This document shows positions 12,476-61,042 of a stretch of DNA of 64,000 nucleotides, in pieces. The stretch is from Elusimicrobiota bacterium (GTDB lineage Bacteria > Elusimicrobiota > Endomicrobiia > CG1-02-37-114 > JAHJSO01). The stretch is taken from contig JBDRQF010000061.1 in the NCBI GenBank assembly GCA_043826435.1, forward strand, positions 6,919 to 70,918, read 5' to 3'. Made by a program: the position numbers and the translations under genes. The notes beneath the pieces were generated by a model, which saw nothing but the letters and a program-made list of their open reading frames with translations, did not search any database and had not been told where the DNA came from. Positions within the stretch are counted from its first letter, which is position 1. Every line of letters starts with the position of its first letter.

Positions 12476-13291
12476 ATGGTTATGGAAACCAAATGTTATC
12501 TTTGTGGCGGCAGGACGGAAAAGTTGTTTGAAAAAGAAAAGGCGGATTATGCCCGATGCACGATATGCGGGCTGATGTTTGTGTCGTCCGGGACGGGGGA
12601 CATTGAAAACCGGTACAGGGAAAAGGACTCCGGAAGACAGGGAAACCTGCTCGGCAGCGAGTGTGACAGGATGATTAAAAGGATGAAGTATCGTTTAAGT
12701 ATAGTTGGAAGATATACAGACGCTACGCCAAACAAAGTCCGTCAAAATAAAGGACGGCTCCTTGACATAGGCAGTAGCAGGGGGGATTTTGTTAAGGTGG
12801 CGTCAGATGCCGGGTGGGACTGCACAGCCGTGGAACTTTCAAAAAGGGACTGCGATTATATAAGGAACGAACTAAAAATAAAGGCGGTGGATAAGGATTT
12901 GACGGAAATCAATTTTCCGGATGAATATTTTGACGCGATAACCCTTTGGCATGTTTTTGAACACTTCAGCGACCCGCTGAAAGAGTTGAAAGAAATCTAC
13001 AGGATACTTTGCAAAGACGGTGTTTTATGCCTTGAAGTCCCGAATATTGACTCGCCGGTTTACCGTCTTAAAGGGAAAAACTGGAAATACATCAACAATG
13101 AACACCTGTATTATTACAACAAAAAAACGATAAAAATGATTTCAGAGGCAGCGGGTTTCGGGATTGAATATATCACGGATATCAGCGGATTAAACTGGTG
13201 GGGGGAGCATGCTACGGTAAAAGTAGTTCTGCACGGTGTCGCCAGAAAGTTGTCCCTGGGTGACCATATTGTGGCTGTTTTGAAAAAATAG
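12476..13291 (+). CDS. class I SAM-dependent methyltransferase with N-terminal CxxC-x15-CxxC zinc ribbon
   Basis: Motif I LLDIGSSRGDF. LWHVFEHF and VLCLEVPN are typical of Methyltransf_11/23. It sits in an AT-rich segment. Confidence 0.6.
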   Translation: MVMETKCYLCGGRTEKLFEKEKADYARCTICGLMFVSSGTGDIENRYREKDSGRQGNLLGSECDRMIKRMKYRLSIVGRYTDATPNKVRQNKGRLLDIGSSRGDFVKVASDAGWDCTAVELSKRDCDYIRNELKIKAVDKDLTEINFPDEYFDAITLWHVFEHFSDPLKELKEIYRILCKDGVLCLEVPNIDSPVYRLKGKNWKYINNEHLYYYNKKTIKMISEAAGFGIEYITDISGLNWWGEHATVKVVLHGVARKLSLGDHIVAVLKK

Positions 13292-13454
13292 ACAACTGCG
13301 ATAAAAGTGTACTCTTTTATTGATAGATTTTACAGGAACTTGATTTCCTTCTCAGAAAATGTTAAAATGAGGGCGTCCGACACAAAGTGGATTGATTAGA
13401 AAAGATACCCTACGTATTTCTTTCCTTTTCTTTTTGTAAGACAACGTGCATACA

Positions 13455-13485
13455 TAGGCGAAAACTGCACTTTCGGTTTAGGAAA
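13455..13485 (+). repeat. left copy of an imperfect 31-nt direct repeat (AGGCGAAAACTGCACTTTCGGTTTAGGAAAA)
   Basis: It matches 13955-13985 (AGGCAAAAACTGCACCTTCGGTCCGGAAAAA) at 26 of 31 positions. The pair flank an AT-rich gene-fragment region. Confidence 0.35.
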
Positions 13486-13599
13486 ATATGAATAAAAAAT
13501 TTTATACCGAGGACGAAGAATGGTTGAAACTTACCCCGGCACAGCGGTTAAAAGAATCAGGTAAATTGTGGGAATTGTACATATCGTTAGGAGGTAATC

Positions 13600-13845
13600 T
13601 TGACCCGGAACCCGATACTCAAAGTCCTTTTTACTTTCAAAAAACACAGAGTAAAAAACCTGTTAATAGGCGGACAGGCAAGCATAATATACGGAGCCGC
13701 TGAATTTAGCAGGGATTCTGACTTTATCATTTTGTGTGATTCAGAAAATGTAGACAGATTAAAAAGGGCGTTAAAATCACTACTAAAAATAAGAAAATGG
13801 CAAGAGAATGTATTCAGGAAAGACCATTGCTTAAATATGCAATAA
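13600..13845 (+). pseudogene. minimal nucleotidyltransferase (MNT/Pol-beta fold) fragment, TTG start with a strong RBS; probable remnant of a toxin-antitoxin or mobile module
   Basis: TAGGAGGTAATC precedes the TTG start. LLIGGQASIIYGAAEFSRDSDFIIL matches the GS...DxD nucleotidyltransferase core. At 81 aa it is too short for a complete nucleotidyltransferase. Adjacent ORFs at 13488-13703 and 13797-14003 in other frames suggest frameshifts. Confidence 0.35.
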
Positions 13846-13954
13846 AAAAAGATATCCCAATGTCAATAAAATTCTTAAAACAAGAAGAAATGTGTGAGAG
13901 AAAAAAGGATATAAAATACTGGCAACCATTAAAACAAGAACTTGAAATGTTAAG

Positions 13955-13985
13955 ACACAGGCAAAAACTGCACCTTCGGTCCGGA
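13955..13985 (+). repeat. right copy of the imperfect 31-nt direct repeat
   Basis: See 13455-13485. Confidence 0.35.
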
Positions 13986-14112
13986 AAAAGCAAGAAACAT
14001 TGACCCAAGCCCCCCCCTTGACAACCTTCGGCAAGTTTTTGTATGATTAAACAATCAAATCGCGTGATATTTAAGGGGTATTTAGAGAGTATTTAAAGGG
14101 TATTCAACGGAT

Positions 14113-14751
14113 ATGGACGAAAACACGCTGAAATATTACGAGGTGCTTCTGCAAAAGACCGCGGACGCGCTCAAAAAAAACAACTTTGAGGACGTCAGTA
14201 TCGTTGACAGTAAAGAACAGGCGAAAGAAAAGATACTGAAACTTATCCCTGCAAATTCAAAGGTGGGCGCCGGCGGGTCAATGACTGTCCGCTCGCTCGG
14301 CGTGATGGACGAATTAAAAAAGAAATGCAACATCGTTCAGCACTCCGTCGGGATGCCTCTTGAGGAAAGAAAAAAGATATGGCATGAGGCAACCGGTGCG
14401 GATTTTTACCTGGCGTCGCCTCAGGCAATTACCACCGACGGACACCTGTTTTTTATAGACAAATACGGAAACCGTCTTTCGGCGATAATCTTCGGGCCCA
14501 CAAGGGTTGTCCTTGTGGCGGGCTACAACAAAGTTGTCCGCGACCTGGACGAGGCGCTCTGGCGGATTAAGAACGTTGCGGCGGTTAAGAATGCCATTCG
14601 CCTGAACGTCAAGACGCCGTGCGTTACTGCGGGAAAATGTATGGACTGCAACGTTCCCGAAAGGATTTGCAATGTCGTAACCTATTTGCTTAAAAGGCCG
14701 GCTGCTACCGACTACACGGTAATTCTCATAAAAGAGGAAGCGGGTTATTAA
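14113..14751 (+). CDS. LUD-domain (DUF162, LutC/YkgG-like) protein
   Basis: 212 aa. The size and pattern resemble the lactate-utilization LUD-domain family. The C-terminal CxxxC...C cluster is noted. Only moderately sure. Confidence 0.5.
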   Translation: MDENTLKYYEVLLQKTADALKKNNFEDVSIVDSKEQAKEKILKLIPANSKVGAGGSMTVRSLGVMDELKKKCNIVQHSVGMPLEERKKIWHEATGADFYLASPQAITTDGHLFFIDKYGNRLSAIIFGPTRVVLVAGYNKVVRDLDEALWRIKNVAAVKNAIRLNVKTPCVTAGKCMDCNVPERICNVVTYLLKRPAATDYTVILIKEEAGY

Positions 14752-14787
14752 AAGGGTATTAATTCCATTGGAAGGGAGGTGAAAAAA

Positions 14788-14970
14788 ATGGCAGATATTT
14801 TTGTTGTTGCGAGCAAGATTAAAAAGTTCGTCAAGGGACAGGGACTTCGTTCAGGCCCGGGCTATTTAGAGGCGCTTTCAAAAAGGGTTGAAGAAACCGT
14901 AAAGGCCTCATCTGAAAAGGTAAAACAGGAAGGTAAAAAGAAGACACTCGGAGCGGAAGACCTTATATAA
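14788..14970 (+). CDS. bacterial histone-fold protein (HBb/DUF1931-like singlet histone)
   Basis: The 60-aa product MADIFVVASKIKKFVKGQG...KKKTLGAEDLI resembles the Bdellovibrio histone Bd0055-type pattern (VVTSKVKKLIKEKG ... GRKTVMARDI) and the archaeal histone RKT..AEDI end. RBS GGGAGGTG is 6 nt upstream of the ATG. Confidence 0.6.
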   Translation: MADIFVVASKIKKFVKGQGLRSGPGYLEALSKRVEETVKASSEKVKQEGKKKTLGAEDLI

Positions 14971-15033
14971 TATTTCACCCTGCCGTTAACCCTCTTATGC
15001 GTTATCATAGACGGGCAAGGCAGGGCTGCACTT

Positions 15034-30438: not shown

Positions 30439-30463
30439 CATGGAAGAGTTGTCAATCAATTAT
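30395..30463 (+). repeat. 18-bp tandem duplication (CAGCGRYTGGGCATACTC x2), a degenerate REP remnant and the 27-nt TGACA-N9-TGTCA motif
   Basis: The 27-nt sequence TGACATGGAAGAGTTGTCAATCAATTAT is nearly identical to 61805-61831 and ends in the treS ATG. Confidence 0.5.
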
Positions 30464-33400
30464 GTCTAAAGAAGAAAAAAACTTTTCGGCTGAACCTTGC
30501 TGGTATAAAGATGCAATAATTTATGAACTGCATGTAAAAACATTTAATGATAGCGATGGGGACGGTATCGGCGACTTCAAAGGACTTACCCAAAAACTTG
30601 ATTATCTTAAAGGACTCGGCATAACTGCAATATGGCTTCTTCCTTTTTATCCTTCGCCCTTAAAAGACGACGGCTATGACATATCCGATTATTTTGGCAT
30701 CCATCCGAATTACGGTAGTATTAAGGACTTTAAGGAATTCCTGAATGAAGCGCATAAAAGAGGAATAATGGTCATCACCGAACTTATTCTAAACCATACT
30801 TCGGACCAGCACGAATGGTTCAAAAGAGCGAGGGAATCAAAACCCGGTTCGGTGTCCAGAGATTTTTATGTATGGAGCGATACGCCTGAAAAATACAAGG
30901 ATGCACGAATAATTTTTAAGGATTTTGAGACATCTAACTGGGCATGGGACCCTGTCGCAAATGCGTACTACTGGCACCGTTTTTATTCTCATCAGCCGGA
31001 TTTGAATTATGACAACGGACAAGTTCAGAAAGCGGTATTGAAAGTTATAGATTATTGGTTTGATATGGGTATTGATGGTATGCGTCTGGATGCGGTTCCG
31101 TATCTTTTTGAAAAAGAAGGGACGAATTGCGAAAACCTGCCCGAGACCCACGAATTCTTAAAAAAATTAAGGGCGTATGTTGACGGCAAACATAAAAATA
31201 AAATGCTTCTTGCGGAAGCGAACCAGTGGCCGGAAGACGCTTCTGCTTATTTCGCGGACGGCACTGCCTGCCATATGGCGTTTCACTTCCCGATTATGCC
31301 CAGAATGTTTATGGCGATATGGATGGAGGACAGATTTCCCATAATAGATATTATTGAACAAACCCCTGAAATTCCTCAAATATGTCAGTGGGCGCTTTTC
31401 TTAAGAAATCACGATGAATTGACGCTTGAAATGGTTGCCGACGAGGAAAGGGACTACATGTACAGGGTCTATGCAAAAGACCCCAGCGCAAGAATCAACC
31501 TTGGCATCCGCCGCCGTCTGGCACCTCTTCTTGGAAATCACAGAAGAAAAATAGAACTGATGAATTTTTTACTTTTTTCTTTACCCGGCACCCCGGTCAT
31601 TTATTACGGGGATGAAGTTGGAATGGGCGACAATTATTATCTCGGCGACAGAAACGGCGTCCGAACCCCTATGCAATGGAACGCTGATAGAAATGCAGGG
31701 TTTTCAATGGCAAATCCACAGAAACTTTATCTGCCGATTATAATTGACCCGGAATATCATTATGAGTATATCAATGTTGAAAACAGCGGAAGAAACCAGT
31801 CGTCTCTTCTGTGGTGGATGAAAAGAGTCATCGCCGTTCGCAAAAGGTTTAAATCATTTGGAAGAGGGGACATAGAATTTTTACCTTCTGACAATCCTAA
31901 GGTTCTTACATTTATAAGGAAATATCAAGATGAGAATATTCTTGTAGTGATTAATCTGTCGAGGTTTTCACAGGCAGTTGAACTTGACCTTTCAAAGTAT
32001 GCCGGATATTTCCCACAGGAAATATTCAGTAGAAACAAATTCCCGCTGATAAAAGATTCTCCATACACTTTTACTTTAGGGTTTTATGATTATTTTTGGT
32101 TTGTGCTCAGAAAAAAAGAGGATCCCTTGAAAATCACTGAAACGGCCATACCAGAACTAAATATTGGAGAAAAATGGACAGGGGTTATAGACGAAAAGAC
32201 AAAAGAAAACATAGAGAGCGAAGCGCTTCCTTTTTACTTAGAAAAGTGCAGATGGTTCAGGTCTAAAGCAAGGAGAATTCAGTCGGTGAGGATTTCTGAA
32301 AACATAGCGATTGGGAAAAGCCCTTCGGCCACTCAATTACTTTTCCTGGAAGTTTTATATATAGAAGGATTGTCAGAAACATATCTGCTGCCGGTATGTT
32401 TCGCATCAAAAGACGAAGCGGATAAAATTATAAAAGAAAATACCGGCGCGGTTATTGCACGACTGAAATGCAAAGATACGGATGGTATTATTTACGAGGG
32501 CGTTTATAACGATGAGTTTCGCAAAAATATTCTTTTGATGATTGCCAGAAAGGATAGTATTGAGGGATTACATGGAAAACTCATCGCATATCCGGGTAAG
32601 TTTTTGAAAAAATTATTCTACCCTAATAAAATACTGCCTCTTGAAAAGTCGCGGGTTTTGAAAGCAGAACAAAGCAATACTTCTTTTCTATATGGGGAAG
32701 AACTGTTTTTTAAACTTTTCAGGATGCTGGATGAGGGTATAAATCCCGAACTTGAAATTGGAAGGTTTCTTACTGAAAAAACACAGTTTAAGAACGCACC
32801 CTTATTCGCCGGAGCGATAGAGTATATAAGCCCCGGCTTAAAGCCAATGGTTATAGGGATACTTCAAAGTTCAGTTTCAAACGAGGGAGATACATGGAAA
32901 TACACTTTAGATTCTCTGGGAAGATACTACGAGAGAATGCTTGCAAAAAAAAGCGAAGTTCAAAAACTACCGCAAATACCAACTTCAATTATGGAAATCG
33001 CTTATAGCGAAATTCCACCGCTGGTGGGCGAATTGGTCGGTGGTGATTATTTTGAAATGGTACGACTTTTAGGAAAAAGGACGGCAGAGATGCATCTTGC
33101 TCTTTATTCTGAAATGCAAGACGAAAATTTTGTTCCGGAACCCTTTTCAATGCTTTATCAACGTTCACTTTATCAGTCAATGCAGTCGCTTACAAAGAAA
33201 GTTTTTGACGCTCTGCGAAAAAATCAGAAAAATTTGTCGGAAAATGCCAGAGATGAAGTTGTCAAACTACTAAGTTTGGAAAAAGAGATAGTTAATAAGT
33301 TCCAAGTCCTGCTCACCAGGAAGATATCAGCAATGAAAATAAGAATACATGGGGACTACCATCTCGGTCAAGTTCTTTTTACCGGAAACGACTTTATAAT

Positions 33401-33797
33401 CATTGATTTTGAGGGCGAACCTATGAGGTCATTAAGCGAAAGAAGATTTAAAAGATCCCCTTTAAGGGATGTTGCAGGAATGATACGTTCGTTTCATTAT
33501 GCCGCGTACACATCATTTACGAAGGATTTACCTATTAAAATTGAAGATTTTTCCGAAATAGAACCGTGGGCTGTTTTATGGTACAAATACATCTCCGGTG
33601 CATTTTTGAGGTCATACCTTGACACTGTGAAAAACATACCGTTTATTCCACAAGATAGGGAAGAATTCAACATTCTGCTGAATGTATATCTTCTGGAAAA
33701 GGCGGTTTACGAACTCGGGTACGAAATCAATAATCGTCCGGAATGGCTCTTTATTCCATTGAATGGAATTAAACAAATACTGGAAGACCAGAAATGA
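30462..33797 (+). CDS. treS: trehalose synthase (GH13) fused to maltokinase (TreS-Mak/Pep2)
   Basis: 1111 aa. The N-terminal alpha-amylase catalytic domain has WLLPFYPSP and DGMRLDAV. The C-terminal maltokinase has HGDYHLGQVLF and IIDFEGEP. The gene is AT-rich relative to its flanks. Confidence 0.8.
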   Translation: MSKEEKNFSAEPCWYKDAIIYELHVKTFNDSDGDGIGDFKGLTQKLDYLKGLGITAIWLLPFYPSPLKDDGYDISDYFGIHPNYGSIKDFKEFLNEAHKRGIMVITELILNHTSDQHEWFKRARESKPGSVSRDFYVWSDTPEKYKDARIIFKDFETSNWAWDPVANAYYWHRFYSHQPDLNYDNGQVQKAVLKVIDYWFDMGIDGMRLDAVPYLFEKEGTNCENLPETHEFLKKLRAYVDGKHKNKMLLAEANQWPEDASAYFADGTACHMAFHFPIMPRMFMAIWMEDRFPIIDIIEQTPEIPQICQWALFLRNHDELTLEMVADEERDYMYRVYAKDPSARINLGIRRRLAPLLGNHRRKIELMNFLLFSLPGTPVIYYGDEVGMGDNYYLGDRNGVRTPMQWNADRNAGFSMANPQKLYLPIIIDPEYHYEYINVENSGRNQSSLLWWMKRVIAVRKRFKSFGRGDIEFLPSDNPKVLTFIRKYQDENILVVINLSRFSQAVELDLSKYAGYFPQEIFSRNKFPLIKDSPYTFTLGFYDYFWFVLRKKEDPLKITETAIPELNIGEKWTGVIDEKTKENIESEALPFYLEKCRWFRSKARRIQSVRISENIAIGKSPSATQLLFLEVLYIEGLSETYLLPVCFASKDEADKIIKENTGAVIARLKCKDTDGIIYEGVYNDEFRKNILLMIARKDSIEGLHGKLIAYPGKFLKKLFYPNKILPLEKSRVLKAEQSNTSFLYGEELFFKLFRMLDEGINPELEIGRFLTEKTQFKNAPLFAGAIEYISPGLKPMVIGILQSSVSNEGDTWKYTLDSLGRYYERMLAKKSEVQKLPQIPTSIMEIAYSEIPPLVGELVGGDYFEMVRLLGKRTAEMHLALYSEMQDENFVPEPFSMLYQRSLYQSMQSLTKKVFDALRKNQKNLSENARDEVVKLLSLEKEIVNKFQVLLTRKISAMKIRIHGDYHLGQVLFTGNDFIIIDFEGEPMRSLSERRFKRSPLRDVAGMIRSFHYAAYTSFTKDLPIKIEDFSEIEPWAVLWYKYISGAFLRSYLDTVKNIPFIPQDREEFNILLNVYLLEKAVYELGYEINNRPEWLFIPLNGIKQILEDQK

Positions 33798-35549: not shown

Positions 35550-36404
35550 TTGGTGAGAGTAAAATTTATGGATAATACAAAAATCGCCTTATTTAAAGGC
35601 AAAAAAATCAGACGAGTCATTTACCAAAATGAATGGTGGTTTTCGGTTGTTGATGTGGTCCAAGCATTAACCGATCAAACTGACGATTATACTGCCAGGA
35701 AATATTGGAATAAACTCGCGCAGCGGTTACGAGAAGAAGGAAGCGAGGTGGTGACATTTTGTCACCGACTGAAATTGGAGGCATCCGATGGAAAAAAATA
35801 TGAAACCGATTCTGCCAATACCGAAGGTGTCTTTCGTATTATTCAGTCCATTCCTTCGCCAAAAGCCGAACCGTTTAAACGATGGCTAGCAAAGGTGGGC
35901 TATGAAAGAGTGCAGGAAATTGAAAATCCAGAACTGGCAACTAAACGGACGCGTATGCTTTACAAACTCAAAGGTTATTCTGACGATTGGATTGAAAAAA
36001 GAATGCGCGGAATTGCTATCCGGGAGGAATTGACTGATGAGTGGCAGAAAAGAGGCGCGAGAGAACAGAGAGAATATGAAATTTTAACCGCAGAGATTTC
36101 CAAAGCGACTTTTGGCATAACTCCAAGCCAGTATAAGAAAATTAAAAAACTCAAGCGGGAAAACCTGCGTGATCATATGAATGACTTAGAATTGATTTTT
36201 ACAATGTTAGGTGAACGCTCAACAACTGAAATTCACAGGACAGAAGATTCAAAAGGTGTAAGCAATCTTAAAAAAGATGCCCAAGCCGGCGGTGATATTG
36301 CCGGCAATGCTCGCAGGCGACTGGAAAAAAGATTAGGGAAATCAATCGTCTCAAAAGAAAATTATTTAAGAGAACTGGAAAGCCAGAAGAAACTAAAAGG
36401 ATAA
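35550..36404 (+). CDS. dinD: DinD/RhuM-family protein with N-terminal Bro-N domain (DNA-damage-inducible protein D-like)
   Basis: KIRRVIYQNEWWFSVVDVVQAL is Bro-N. The C-terminal part matches the RhuM/DinD family layout. The true start may be ATG 35565. Confidence 0.65.
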   Translation: MVRVKFMDNTKIALFKGKKIRRVIYQNEWWFSVVDVVQALTDQTDDYTARKYWNKLAQRLREEGSEVVTFCHRLKLEASDGKKYETDSANTEGVFRIIQSIPSPKAEPFKRWLAKVGYERVQEIENPELATKRTRMLYKLKGYSDDWIEKRMRGIAIREELTDEWQKRGAREQREYEILTAEISKATFGITPSQYKKIKKLKRENLRDHMNDLELIFTMLGERSTTEIHRTEDSKGVSNLKKDAQAGGDIAGNARRRLEKRLGKSIVSKENYLRELESQKKLKG

Positions 36405-36648
36405 TTGTGTCCAAATCATACCCCTTAGAAAAGAACAATTAAAACATTTAGAAAAAGATAAAGACAAAATCAGAAACTTATTCAAAAACTCCGAAAACGA
36501 AAACATTGACATAGATATATTACTATTATTATCTTCAAAAGTCCTCAGTCCAAATATAAATGCGGATATTATTTTGACTTGGTTAGACACTTACAATCTT
36601 TATAAATATGAGATGTTTAAGCATGCCGATGATTTATATCGTAAATAA
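36397..36648 (+). pseudogene. start-less 84-codon ORF remnant (C-terminal fragment of an unknown protein)
   Basis: It is open in frame from 36397 to stop 36646-48 with no usable start. It is AT-rich and overlaps the dinD-like stop. Confidence 0.3.
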
Positions 36649-36716
36649 AATTGCCTCAGGGTAAAAATCAGTTCGGGGGTCTATCGGAAATTATAAAGCA
36701 AGCACGGAGGAGTCTA

Positions 36717-38141
36717 ATGAAAAAATACGTAATTCTATTATTGTTTTTGTCGCACTGCACGCTTTCTTACGGAACTAAATTACCTGATAATATAGTCTTG
36801 TCTGTTATGTATTTTGATAACGCATCAAAATCCCATGATTTTGATTGGATGAGGAAAGGTATTGCGGATATGGTTATTAGCGACCTTTCAAAAATCAAAA
36901 AAATAAAAGTTGTTCAACGAGAAAATTTACAAAAAGTTTTAGAAGAACAGAAACTTGCTCTGACAGGTATTATTAGTGAAGACAGTGCAGTAAAAGCGGG
37001 GAATATATTAGGGGCAAATGTTATTCTATTAGGGTCATTTATTGTTTTTAACAATGAGATAAGAATAGACGGTCAGCTTATTGATATTAAAACTTCTGAA
37101 GTTATAGATGGTGTAATGGTTGCCGGAAAAGTTTCAAAATTCTTATTATTAGAAAAACAGTTTAGCATGGAATTATTAAAAAAATTAGGTGTTAAATTGA
37201 CACCAGAAAATCAAAAATTAATTAAACATATAGAAACAGAAAATTTAGATGCACTTAAATATAACTATGAAGGCATTAGTGCAATAGATGACAAGCAAAT
37301 TGCAAAAGCATTGGAACTGTTCAAAAAAGCAACTCAAATAGCCCCTGAATATAAATCAGCCCAAAATAATTACGCTTATTTCTCAAAAAACGTATCGGGT
37401 GAAAATATATTTTCTGAAGCATTTTCACAACTTGACAATAAAACAGATTTTTTAACCACTTCTAAAAAGTTGCTTGAAGATTTAGCAGACGAGATTGTTA
37501 AAAAAGGATTTATAATCCGAATAGGAGAACCAATTATTTCAACGGACATAAATAACCCTGACAAGGTTAACATAAAAGTAGATGTAAAAATAGCCCTTGA
37601 TAAAAAAGTGAGGAACAAGATTTTTAAAGCGCAACAATCTTTGAAAGGAGGATGGTGTAAAGCAGGCGGGGTTAGTTATGGCATTTCCACGTCTGCATAT
37701 TTTGCAGCATATTATGCAGATTTCTCGTATTCAAGACTGTGGGTTGACTACGCTCCTGGGTGTATTGCTTTTTTTGGTAAAGGTGCTGATTTTTATGAAA
37801 AAGAAGAAAAAGAATATCGTTTGAACAAATATTTTTATAATCTATTAAAAGATCTAAAAGTTGTTTTTATTTTTGCAGATAAAGATGGCAATACAATCAT
37901 TGAAGTTATCGGTGCCAGTAACCCCATACCCGGGCGGGGGCGTACGGGCAGAGACCATAGGGTTTCCACTTGTGATTTGCCATTTAAGGTTCTCGGAATG
38001 CTACGCTGGAACAGTGATTTCCATTTTTTTGTTATATGGGCGAAAGAAAGAGTGGGACAAATAATATTAGCAGAAGATACGGCCGTATTGCTGAAAGATG
38101 CAAAGAAAATAACCTCAATTATATCCAGAGTAGAGAGATAA
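36717..38141 (+). CDS. secreted/lipoprotein with CsgG-like N-terminal domain and TPR-like segment, C-terminal domain unknown
   Basis: Signal peptide MKKYVILLLFLSHC after RBS GGAGG. The CsgG/HfaB-like pattern is VLSVMYFDN.S...G.ADM...L....V.RE.L..VLEEQ.L..TG......K.G..LGA..ILLGS. Very AT-rich. Confidence 0.5.
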   Translation: MKKYVILLLFLSHCTLSYGTKLPDNIVLSVMYFDNASKSHDFDWMRKGIADMVISDLSKIKKIKVVQRENLQKVLEEQKLALTGIISEDSAVKAGNILGANVILLGSFIVFNNEIRIDGQLIDIKTSEVIDGVMVAGKVSKFLLLEKQFSMELLKKLGVKLTPENQKLIKHIETENLDALKYNYEGISAIDDKQIAKALELFKKATQIAPEYKSAQNNYAYFSKNVSGENIFSEAFSQLDNKTDFLTTSKKLLEDLADEIVKKGFIIRIGEPIISTDINNPDKVNIKVDVKIALDKKVRNKIFKAQQSLKGGWCKAGGVSYGISTSAYFAAYYADFSYSRLWVDYAPGCIAFFGKGADFYEKEEKEYRLNKYFYNLLKDLKVVFIFADKDGNTIIEVIGASNPIPGRGRTGRDHRVSTCDLPFKVLGMLRWNSDFHFFVIWAKERVGQIILAEDTAVLLKDAKKITSIISRVER

Positions 38142-58639: not shown

Positions 58640-60337
58640 ATGAAAAATCAACGCCTCACCAAAAGACAAAAAGATATAATAGGAGTCCCTCTTTTAGGAA
58701 CTATCGCCGCAGGAGAACCAATTCATGCAATTGAAGTCCCGCAAGAAACAATACCAATACCAAGAGACGAATTAAGTAAAACCGAAAAATATTATGCCTT
58801 GCGAGTTCAAGGCAATAGCATGGTAGACGAAGGTATTTTTGACGGCGATATCGTTGTTATACGGAAACAAGAAACTGCAATTAACGGCCAATCTGTTGTT
58901 GCAATCATTGACGGTGACCAAGCAACTTTAAAAAAACTCTACCGTGAAAAAAACAGGATAAAATTGCAGCCCGCAAATCCTTTGTTATTCCCAATTTATC
59001 CTAAAGAAATTGAGATAAGAGGTATTGTTGTAAAAATAATACGCAACTTAGAACAGAAAATAGAAAAATGTTCTTCCGCTGGACCTAAATTTAAAAGACG
59101 AATAGATTATTCATGGGATTATTCAGGACAAAACACTAAATCATATACACACGGGTTACACACATATCCAGCAATGTTTATTCCGCAGGTAGCAAGGCGA
59201 CTTTTACAGAACTACAGTAATAAAGGCGATACAATATGCGATGTTTTTTGCGGTTCAGGTACTGCTTTAGTTGAAAGCAGAGTATTAGAAAGAAATGCCT
59301 ACGGAATAGACCTAAACCCATTAGCTGCGTTTTTATCAAAAGTAAAAACAACAGAAATAAATCCTCTAACATTGAATAAAAAATATTTTCAATTAATAGA
59401 TAGGATTGCAAAAATAAAAAGCGAAAACATTAAAAAGCCAGATTTCTTTAATATTGATTTCTGGTTTAAAGAAGCCGTAATTATTAAACTGTCTAAAATA
59501 AAAAAAGCCATTAATGAAATAGAACAAGAAAACACCAGAAACTTTTTCATGGCGGCATTCAGTGAGGCAGTGCGGCTTAGTTCTAATACAAAAAATGGTG
59601 AATTTAAACTTGTTAGGATACCAAATGATAAGTTAAAGAACTATAATCCGGATGTAATAAATATTTTCAAGAAAAGAGTTGAATCAAACATATTAGGAAT
59701 GGAAGATTTCTTTAAAAATGTTGATAAAAACGCATGGGTCAAGATAATATACGGCGATTCTTCAAAAGAAAATGGAATAAAAGAAAACTCAATTGACTGC
59801 ATTATTACTTCTCCACCTTACGGGGACAGCAGAACAACAGTTGCTTATGGACAATTTTCAAGATTGTCCGCTCAATGGACAGATATCTTAGAAAATCCCG
59901 ATATGGCTTCCAACATAGACAATGAATTACTTGGAGGAAGGTCTGTTAAAGAATTAAAATATAATCTAAATTCAACCCACTTAAGCACAATCTTGAATGA
60001 AATATCAAACAAAGACGAAAAGCGAGCAAGAGAGGTTCTAAGTTTTTTTATTGACTTAGAAAAATGCCTTAAACAGGCCTATAGAATACTTAAACCCAAT
60101 AAATATTTCTGCGTTGTAATAGGTAATCGCCTTGTTAAACAAGTAAGAATCCCTACCGATTTTATTATAGCAGAAATTTGCGAAAACATTGGTTTTGTCT
60201 GTGAAGACATTTTTGTCAGAAATATTCCTGGCAAAAGGATGCCGTTAAAAAATTCTCCATCAAATGTTACTGGACGAACTGAAGAAACTATGTTGAAAGA
60301 AAGCATAGTGATTTTAAGAAAGATTAAGAAAGGCTAA
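58640..60337 (+). CDS. fusion of LexA/UmuD-type S24 peptidase domain (N-terminal, no HTH) with an N4/N6-family (SPPY) DNA methyltransferase
   Basis: Residues 18-135 (VPLLGTIAAGEP ... VQGNSMVDEGIFDGD ... ATLKKL) carry the AG cleavage site and the Ser and Lys dyad. The methyltransferase has FCGSGTA (motif I) and TSPPYG (motif IV). Very AT-rich. Confidence 0.7.
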   Translation: MKNQRLTKRQKDIIGVPLLGTIAAGEPIHAIEVPQETIPIPRDELSKTEKYYALRVQGNSMVDEGIFDGDIVVIRKQETAINGQSVVAIIDGDQATLKKLYREKNRIKLQPANPLLFPIYPKEIEIRGIVVKIIRNLEQKIEKCSSAGPKFKRRIDYSWDYSGQNTKSYTHGLHTYPAMFIPQVARRLLQNYSNKGDTICDVFCGSGTALVESRVLERNAYGIDLNPLAAFLSKVKTTEINPLTLNKKYFQLIDRIAKIKSENIKKPDFFNIDFWFKEAVIIKLSKIKKAINEIEQENTRNFFMAAFSEAVRLSSNTKNGEFKLVRIPNDKLKNYNPDVINIFKKRVESNILGMEDFFKNVDKNAWVKIIYGDSSKENGIKENSIDCIITSPPYGDSRTTVAYGQFSRLSAQWTDILENPDMASNIDNELLGGRSVKELKYNLNSTHLSTILNEISNKDEKRAREVLSFFIDLEKCLKQAYRILKPNKYFCVVIGNRLVKQVRIPTDFIIAEICENIGFVCEDIFVRNIPGKRMPLKNSPSNVTGRTEETMLKESIVILRKIKKG

Positions 60338-60340
60338 ACA

Positions 60341-61042
60341 ATGACACTTACTGAATTGAAAAAAAGATTAAAAAATCTAAAAGATAAGGGTTTTATCTCC
60401 TCAAAAAGAAAAGGTCCTACTGGTATAGGATATACTTTTGAGACCGAACTAAATTTAAAAGAAACCAACATCGCAATCCCCGACCTCGGCGGTAGAATAG
60501 AATTAAAGACAATGAGAGAAACTTCAGGGTCTCTTGTTACATTGTTTACATTCAATAAATCAGTGTGGAAAATTCACCCCAAAGATGCTATTTCCAAATA
60601 TGGCTATTTTGATGAAAATAAACGACATTGCCTATATGTTACAGTCGCATTTGGAACTCCTAATAATCAAGGATTGTTATTGGATTTAGACAAATCCGGT
60701 GAAAACCTTCAATTGAAAGACAAGAATGGTATTCTTATTGGCAACTGGAAAATGAGCCATATTGTAGCAAAATTTCTCTCTAAAATGGGAAGATTAATTA
60801 TAGTTTATGCGGACACAAGAAAAAATGATACCGGCGTTGAGGAATTTTTCTATAAAAAGGCATATCTACTGGAAAACCCTTCAGACGATAATTTTGTAGA
60901 TGCTATCAAGAAGAAATCCGCTTTTGTGGATATAAGAATGTATTTAAGGCCGGATGGGTCAGTTAGAAACCACGGGACTGGTTTCCGGGTGTATGAGAAA
61001 GATTTGGGGTCGCTGTATCAAAGTAGGAGACAATTGATTTGA
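60341..61042 (+). CDS. type II restriction endonuclease, MvaI/BcnI family
   Basis: 233 aa. LKNLKDKGFIS, the PDLGGRIELK PD-ExK core, and LIIVYADTRK...FYKKAYLLEN are collinear with BcnI/MvaI as recalled. The start overlaps the methyltransferase stop. Confidence 0.65.
   Translation: MTLTELKKRLKNLKDKGFISSKRKGPTGIGYTFETELNLKETNIAIPDLGGRIELKTMRETSGSLVTLFTFNKSVWKIHPKDAISKYGYFDENKRHCLYVTVAFGTPNNQGLLLDLDKSGENLQLKDKNGILIGNWKMSHIVAKFLSKMGRLIIVYADTRKNDTGVEEFFYKKAYLLENPSDDNFVDAIKKKSAFVDIRMYLRPDGSVRNHGTGFRVYEKDLGSLYQSRRQLI

Follow-up and report, generated by a model that had tools for sequence, protein, structure and literature searches.

The window, i.e., the whole 64-kb stretch of DNA that was analyzed (positions 1–64000), contains on its + strand a short coding sequence (14788..14970, stop codon included) for a 60-aa protein that we read as an alpha3-truncated histone fold of the type of HBb (Bd0055) from Bdellovibrio bacteriovorus. 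The coding sequence runs from an ATG at 14788 to a TAA at 14968–14970 and is preceded by a Shine-Dalgarno site, GGGAGG (14774..14779, + strand), in which 8 nt separate the end of GGAGG from the ATG, in agreement with the strong ribosome-binding site that a preliminary description of this DNA had claimed. In each of five aligned orthologous loci, a purine-rich element of the same kind (GGAGG, GGAGGA, or GGAAGG) lies at approximately this distance 5' of the start codon. The mechanical ORF list opened the frame at a GTG (14779 to TAA 14970, + strand, 63 aa), which was rejected as a start codon: it lies inside the Shine-Dalgarno site, the 17 close homologues without exception have a length of 60 aa and MA or MS as their first residues, and in L008, one of the aligned relatives, the closest GTG upstream is not in the frame of the ATG. 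Translation therefore starts at 14788, and the product has the 60 aa originally given for it. Both motifs quoted in the preliminary description, VVASKIKKFVKGQG and KKKTLGAEDL, occur in the protein as written.

The protein is 100% identical to NCBI KJ967_06335, a 'hypothetical protein' from an Elusimicrobia MAG, while 16 further homologues share 67–85% identity with it, all being 60 aa long and none carrying a Pfam annotation. Among five orthologous genes, synonymous change was saturated (pS 0.60–0.90) whereas pN stayed at 0.09–0.15, and dN/dS was 0.055–0.118 where it could be calculated. The ORF is thus a genuine gene that is subject to strong purifying selection.

Gene neighborhood and transcription

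The genes on both sides were annotated with Pfam, which confirmed the previously described location between a LUD-domain gene and a flavinylation cluster: the upstream neighbor is a LUD_dom gene (14113–14751), and the downstream genes encode NusG_II, Hpre_diP_synt_I (with a weak additional match to CbiQ), and ApbE proteins, followed by aroB, rnfC, and rnfD. A chromosomal backbone of surE-uvrB-nadC-(variable)-(LUD)-histone-(variable)-rnfCDGE is conserved in the nearest lineages, which argues for vertical inheritance. The immediate neighbors are variable, and thus no conserved operon partner ties the histone to LUD or to flavinylation; a functional operon joining the histone to the LUD gene or to the NusG_II/Hpre_diP_synt_I/ApbE genes was rejected, as this adjacency is confined to the nearest lineages.

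A consensus scan for promoters returned one sigma-70-like match 5' of the LUD gene (TTGACA-18-TATGAT, 14018..14047, + strand, 11/12 matches). A single site is within chance (1.9 ± 1.3 expected from shuffles), and this uncertain candidate could drive a transcript covering both the LUD and the histone gene; in the 36-nt gap between the two, the consensus scan found no promoter-like site. Behind the histone stop codon, RNA folding indicated a GC-rich hairpin that lacks a T-tract (14978..15025, + strand). The segment 14965–15040 folds at −21.3 kcal/mol (z = −2.2), with 1 out of 200 shuffles being as stable, and the hairpin was not called by the terminator scan; it is an uncertain feature that may represent the transcript end or an mRNA stabilizer. 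In alignments read by eye, the orthologous loci L008 and L013 have a hairpin with a T-run at the same place, and the gene of the P0013 lineage is equipped with promoter-like hexamers of its own as well as with a hairpin and T-run.

The GC3 of the histone gene is 0.41, compared to 0.59 ± 0.07 in 60-codon windows of native-looking genes (0.9th percentile). L005 behaves likewise (1.4th percentile), whereas the trend is weaker in L008 and L013 and absent in the AT-rich L011; it could reflect the codon bias of a highly expressed gene, the sample being just 60 codons. A tblastn search within the 64-kb window found neither a second histone copy nor an HU gene.

Other characteristics of the window were recorded alongside. 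Between a methyltransferase gene and the LUD gene lies an 820-nt stretch (13291–14113) with only overlapping small ORFs (68–81 aa), of which the one tested (13600–13845) had no Pfam match; on another contig with the identical histone (L003), gene calling placed a 71-aa gene at a comparable location 5' of the LUD gene. Five long ORFs within 30462–33797, 35550–38141, and 58640–61042 have a GC content of 0.33–0.40 and a GC3 of 0.26–0.39, compared to about 0.47–0.53 and about 0.52–0.69, respectively, in the rest of the window, and may be horizontally acquired islands. Nearly all plausible genes of at least 180 aa in the window are encoded on the + strand. Searches of the 64 kb for tRNA genes and for Rfam families (at gathering score) found none.

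Homology, predicted fold, and class among prokaryotic histones

When used as a single query against Pfam and NCBIfam, including the CBFD_NFYB_HMF and DUF1931 profiles, the protein had no match even at E ≤ 10, and PDB sequences, profiles, and relatives were therefore used to establish homology. The best phmmer matches among PDB sequences were the HBb/Bd0055 chains 8fvx and 8cmp (E = 2e−5, residues 1–59). A profile built from the clade of the 17 close homologues matched these chains over the full length with E = 4e−11, followed by the archaeal face-to-face (FtF) histone HTkC (9f2c, E = 1e−7) and the Leptospira face-to-face histone HLp (9qt0, E = 8.5e−6). With this profile, 1.84 billion cluster representatives were searched exhaustively, resulting in 401 relatives at E ≤ 1e−3, among which were Bd0055 orthologues and doublets of about 120–135 aa. 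Of 93 singlet relatives screened against Pfam, 35 matched CBFD_NFYB_HMF (PF00808), nine matched Histone, and nine matched DUF1931. The alignment of the wider family with HMfB by hhalign (probability 92%, E = 7e−7) had a 4-residue gap in alpha2 and paired KKTLGAEDL with RKTIKAEDI. The histone fold proposed in the preliminary description is borne out by the HBb and HMfB comparisons and by the CBFD_NFYB_HMF matches of the relatives, and homology to HBb is shown for the entire length of the protein.

Structures were predicted with AF2 from two alignments. The first model, based on the 17-sequence clade alignment, had two helices and an unresolved L2 (pLDDT 74), and Foldseek returned no match for this shallow-alignment model; it was superseded by a second, single-chain model based on 93 sequences (pLDDT 86.4), which consists of an extended N-terminus (residues 1–7), alpha1 (8–17), L1, alpha2 (26–48), L2, and a one-turn alpha3 (56–58). 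The top Foldseek matches of the latter in the PDB were HBb structures (9ezz, 9f0e, 8fvx, 8cmp; TM 0.87–0.89, rmsd 1.0–1.4 Å), HLp and HTkC were found at TM 0.83 (rmsd 1.2–1.3 Å), and eukaryotic histones and NF-Y at TM 0.5–0.68. For a single chain, the order of elements and the best PDB matches are those anticipated for a histone fold.

Helix alpha1 is encoded by codons 8–17 (14809..14838, + strand) and contains the predicted DNA-backbone contacts S9-K10, K12, K13, and K16, all of which are invariant in the 17 close homologues; in the wider relatives, S9 is present in 89/93 and K10 in 82/93. Loop L1 (codons 18–25, 14839..14862, + strand) contains R21, an arginine found in 17/17 close homologues and in 60/93 wider relatives. 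The 23 residues of alpha2 (codons 26–48, 14863..14931, + strand) form the predicted dimerization helix, and the counterparts of the HBb dimer core (L30, V34, I11, and L59) are conserved in the clade alignment. Codons 49–60 (14932..14967, + strand) were assigned from the HBb alignments and AF2 to L2 (G49-K50-K51-K52-T53-L54-G55) and the one-turn alpha3 (A56-E57-D58-L59-I60), of which only residues 56–58 are helical in the AF2 model, and the protein ends two residues after D58. The clade shows no variation at K50, K51, K52, T53, and D58. Among the wider relatives, 79/93 have a gap at position 50, and position 51 is R in 72/93 and K in 11/93. No histidine occurs in the protein or in 80 Elusimicrobiota orthologues (the best 80 of 164).

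The closest known protein type is HBb, for which the PDB structures 8FVX, 8FW7, 8CMP, 9EZZ, and 9F0E are available. The two proteins are collinear over the full length (59–61 aligned positions, 32–34% identity) and have in common the extended hydrophobic N-terminus, S9-K10, K12, K16, the short alpha2, the one-turn alpha3, K52-T53, and D58, as well as the lack of tetramerization residues. Six of the ten main DNA contacts of HBb (PMC11317129) are identical and invariant in the Elusimicrobiota protein, i.e., S9, K10, K12, K16, K52, and T53. There are nevertheless several differences: L2 is one residue longer (GKKKT vs. GRKT), the clamp arginine R51 of HBb is a lysine in 17/17 clade members, and R57, a major DNA contact of HBb in simulations (PMC11317129), is replaced by an invariant Glu, the residue that is also found in HMfB. 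Moreover, N22 of HBb corresponds to the invariant R21, which is aligned with the 'sprocket' R19 of HMfB, the chain terminates at residue 60 without the VIDHL tail of HBb, and it is more basic (pI 9.7 and net charge +5 per chain, compared to pI 8.9 and +2 in HBb).

With HMfB, the protein shares the histone fold and the K-T-x-x-A-E-D-[IL] motif of L2/alpha3, and its K13, K16, and R21 align with HMfB R10, K13, and R19, but alpha2 is 4 residues shorter, alpha3 has one turn instead of three, and His49 has no equivalent. HLp from Leptospira perolatii (9QT0) and HTkC from Thermococcus kodakarensis (9F2C) have the same alpha3-truncated fold, but they form tetramers via R49, N53, and R55 (HLp numbering), residues that are absent here.

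Prokaryotic histones have been divided into nucleosomal and alpha3-truncated types, the latter including bacterial dimers, with HBb as the prototype, and FtF tetramers (PMC11390915; PMC12701072). We assign the gene product, with a probability of roughly 80%, to the alpha3-truncated 'bacterial dimer' histones, a category that itself rests on sequence clustering (PMC11390915), and regard it as a predicted DNA-binding homodimer with a presumed role in the nucleoid. In this category, alpha2 is about 4–5 residues shorter than in nucleosomal histones and alpha3 is reduced to 3–4 residues. The protein clusters with HBb, has an alpha2 shortened by the 4-residue gap relative to HMfB and an alpha3 of one turn, and carries the S9-K10 motif together with the lysines of alpha1. 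Of the RxTxxxxD motif, which combines the RD clamp with the KT DNA contact, T53, D58, and their spacing are present, but the Arg position is Lys in 17/17 homologues (K51-x-T53-xxxx-D58) and L2 has one additional residue; a Lys-Asp salt bridge would be plausible. The RKT motif of the preliminary description is not the one present, as L2 reads KKKT and the clamp Arg has become Lys. Residues for higher oligomers were not found: the His49 of HMfB is missing, the positions of FtF R48 and N52 are occupied by V45/K44 and G49/E48, and R49, N53, and R55, which mediate the tetramerization of HLp, have no conserved counterpart (V45 or K44; G49 or E48; K51).

Other classes fit less well. The DUF1931 family (PF09123) consists of pseudodimeric doublets that cluster apart (PMC12701072) and do not have conventional DNA-binding residues, whereas the protein described here is a single 60-aa fold without a Pfam match at E ≤ 10, and 9/93 of its distant relatives touch PF09123; its earlier designation as DUF1931-like was therefore abandoned. 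The likeness to the Leptospira histone holds at the level of the profile match but not of the type, HLp being an FtF tetramer whose residues are absent here. The one-turn alpha3, the absence of His, and the lack of a direct PF00808 match separate the protein from the archaeal nucleosomal histones.

Predicted DNA binding and alternative readings

Judging by its sequence, the protein most likely functions as a non-specific DNA-binding homodimer of the nucleoid. Two chains would pair head-to-tail via alpha2 (L30, V34, and residue 37), with the participation of I11 and L59, and the resulting basic homodimer would bind the DNA backbone at minor grooves without sequence specificity. One set of contacts would be provided by the first turn of alpha1 (S9, K10, K12, K13, and K16) and a second one by a paired L1/L2 site, to which one chain would contribute R21 and S22 and the other K50–K52 and T53. 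In this way, the dimer could bend or coat DNA as an abundant nucleoid-associated protein, for which the pI of 9.7, the strong Shine-Dalgarno site, and the low GC3 are indirect hints. Two modes have been published for HBb, namely an end-on sheath on straight DNA (PMC10627809), a filament that was seen in one HBb crystal, and the bending of DNA by individual dimers (PMC11317129). The end-on coating mentioned in the preliminary description hence covers only one of the two models, and between single-dimer bending and an end-on filament the sequence alone does not discriminate.

It is also conceivable, though unlikely, that the Elusimicrobiota histones are a distinct structural variant with a DNA geometry unlike both HBb modes and constitute the main chromatin protein in this phylum. 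This reading is based on the L2 that is extended by one residue and contains a Lys triplet, the exchange of the clamp Arg for Lys, the acidic residue in place of the R57 contact, and the L1 'sprocket' Arg.

As histone folds may serve non-DNA roles (a caution expressed in Schwab 2024 and Hocher 2023), we considered a function outside chromatin, e.g., as a protein-protein adaptor for the neighboring LUD or flavinylation/Rnf genes, comparable to what has been proposed for DUF1931. The LUD gene is situated directly upstream, at a distance of 33–172 nt, in 4/5 of the nearest lineages, the LUD-histone gap of the window (36 nt) has no separate promoter that could be found, and nine of the 93 relatives match DUF1931. 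However, the P0013 lineage has no LUD gene, the lineages of P0009, P0013, and P0014 lack the NusG_II/ApbE genes, and in a set of 80 Elusimicrobiota genomes, neighbors of the type seen in the window were encountered at only about five loci. The invariance of the basic DNA-contact residues and the high pI speak against an adaptor as well, given that DUF1931 proteins are doublets devoid of conventional DNA-binding residues, and we consider such a role improbable.

A comparably small chance is given to an FtF histone like HLp or HTkC, i.e., a torus-shaped tetramer that wraps about 60 bp of DNA. The clade profile does match both of these proteins, the model superposes on them, and FtF-type sequences (N at R-2, R at R-6) are present among the 93 relatives, but HBb scores clearly above HTkC and HLp, the nearest relatives by distance are without the FtF signature, and the tetramerization residues are not conserved. 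Far less probable still is an archaeal-type nucleosomal histone that polymerizes into hypernucleosomes, despite the remote HMfB profile match, the common KTxxAED motif, and the L1 Arg aligned with sprocket R19: with its short alpha3 and alpha2 and no His49 equivalent, the four-helix-bundle tetramer interface cannot form, and HBb itself wraps DNA only with engineered tetramerization residues (Hocher 2023). Finally, a chance ORF or mis-called small gene without a product, as its mere 60 aa, the empty Pfam and NCBIfam searches, and the NCBI label 'hypothetical protein' might suggest, has virtually no probability left and is already refuted by the conservation data, i.e., strong purifying selection, fixed length, a conserved Shine-Dalgarno site, and relatives in 164 genomes.

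Histones of this type in the Elusimicrobiota

When one genome was scanned for each GTDB species, 164 loci that encode a relative were identified. For the best 80 of these 164, the record titles name Elusimicrobia, Elusimicrobiota, or Endomicrobia in essentially every case (one reads only 'bacterium'); they include a Candidatus Endomicrobium trichonymphae MAG as well as the complete genome CP096137.1 and encode proteins of 59–60 aa without exception. As the scan pattern was KKKTLGAE, the tally of KKKT in the 80 loci is circular and is not evidence of a universal motif. The protein belongs to an Elusimicrobiota clade of histones that is probably vertically inherited across the phylum.

Members of this clade have appeared in published surveys. 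OGS21531.1 from Elusimicrobia bacterium RIFOXYA2_FULL_39_19 is given as a bacterial singlet histone in Supplementary Table 1 of Hocher 2023, a table that includes further proteins with ...KKKTLGAEDL, and Elusimicrobiota are among the phyla with bacterial-dimer histones in Schwab et al. 2024 and Hu et al. 2024. The sequence of OGS21531.1 is that of our P0009, which is 60 aa long, ends in ...EGKKKTLGAEDLI, is 82% identical to the window protein, and has the same surE-uvrB-nadC-...-LUD-histone synteny; the two differ only by ordinary orthologue divergence. With relatives from the same phylum already in published histone surveys, the window protein is an unannotated member of a published clade, correctly called but neither a new discovery nor a new kind of protein, with the L2 variant as a modest difference, and the rarity ascribed to bacterial histones in the preliminary description is overstated for Elusimicrobiota, where they had already been published.

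Several observations were made on the relatives and their surroundings. In 43/80 Elusimicrobiota genomes (L017–L096, e.g., L024, L040, L046, and L058), the histone gene is immediately followed, in the same orientation, by a Methyltransf_28 gene (PF02636) of the MidA/NDUFAF7 type, which we take to be a protein arginine methyltransferase family, and nuoA comes after it in 41 loci, mostly as the next gene; the observation also concerns L016 (250–429), and neither gene is present in the window. The simplest reading is that the methyltransferase gene belongs with the nuo operon. A suspected tandem histone pair in L016 was rejected, as the second partner is the N-terminus of a MidA-like methyltransferase encoded behind the histone.

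Eight histone-fold relatives (P0023, P0080, P0097, P0152, P0156, P0166, P0057, and P0155) have an N-terminal hydrophobic segment that by eye resembles a signal peptide, and two of them (P0057 and P0155) additionally have an N-terminal segment that, likewise by eye, resembles an RNA-recognition motif (RRM), architectures that are odd for a DNA-packaging protein. A 59-aa relative with a long L2 loop (GKRKT) is encoded on a 137-kb contig (P0020, Logan SRR21778130, L015 6001–6180), where its start overlaps an upstream epimerase gene by 4 nt. The context of P0020 is unrelated: the contig encodes a MJ0330_N protein with an intein, Fic, Vsr, and numerous small ORFs that lack annotation, and the locus may belong to a mobile element or a phage.

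Research on bacterial histones is recent and active, and it is disputed how HBb binds DNA. To our knowledge, experimental studies exist only for HBb from Bdellovibrio and for the histones of Leptospira. Histone genes such as the one described here are still annotated as 'hypothetical protein' and escape both Pfam and NCBIfam. The Elusimicrobiota clade is large, with relatives in at least 164 species-level genomes, and is uniform in length (59–60 aa), strongly constrained, and consistent in its KKKT variant of L2, and it would therefore be a reasonable third test case for DNA binding by alpha3-truncated histones.
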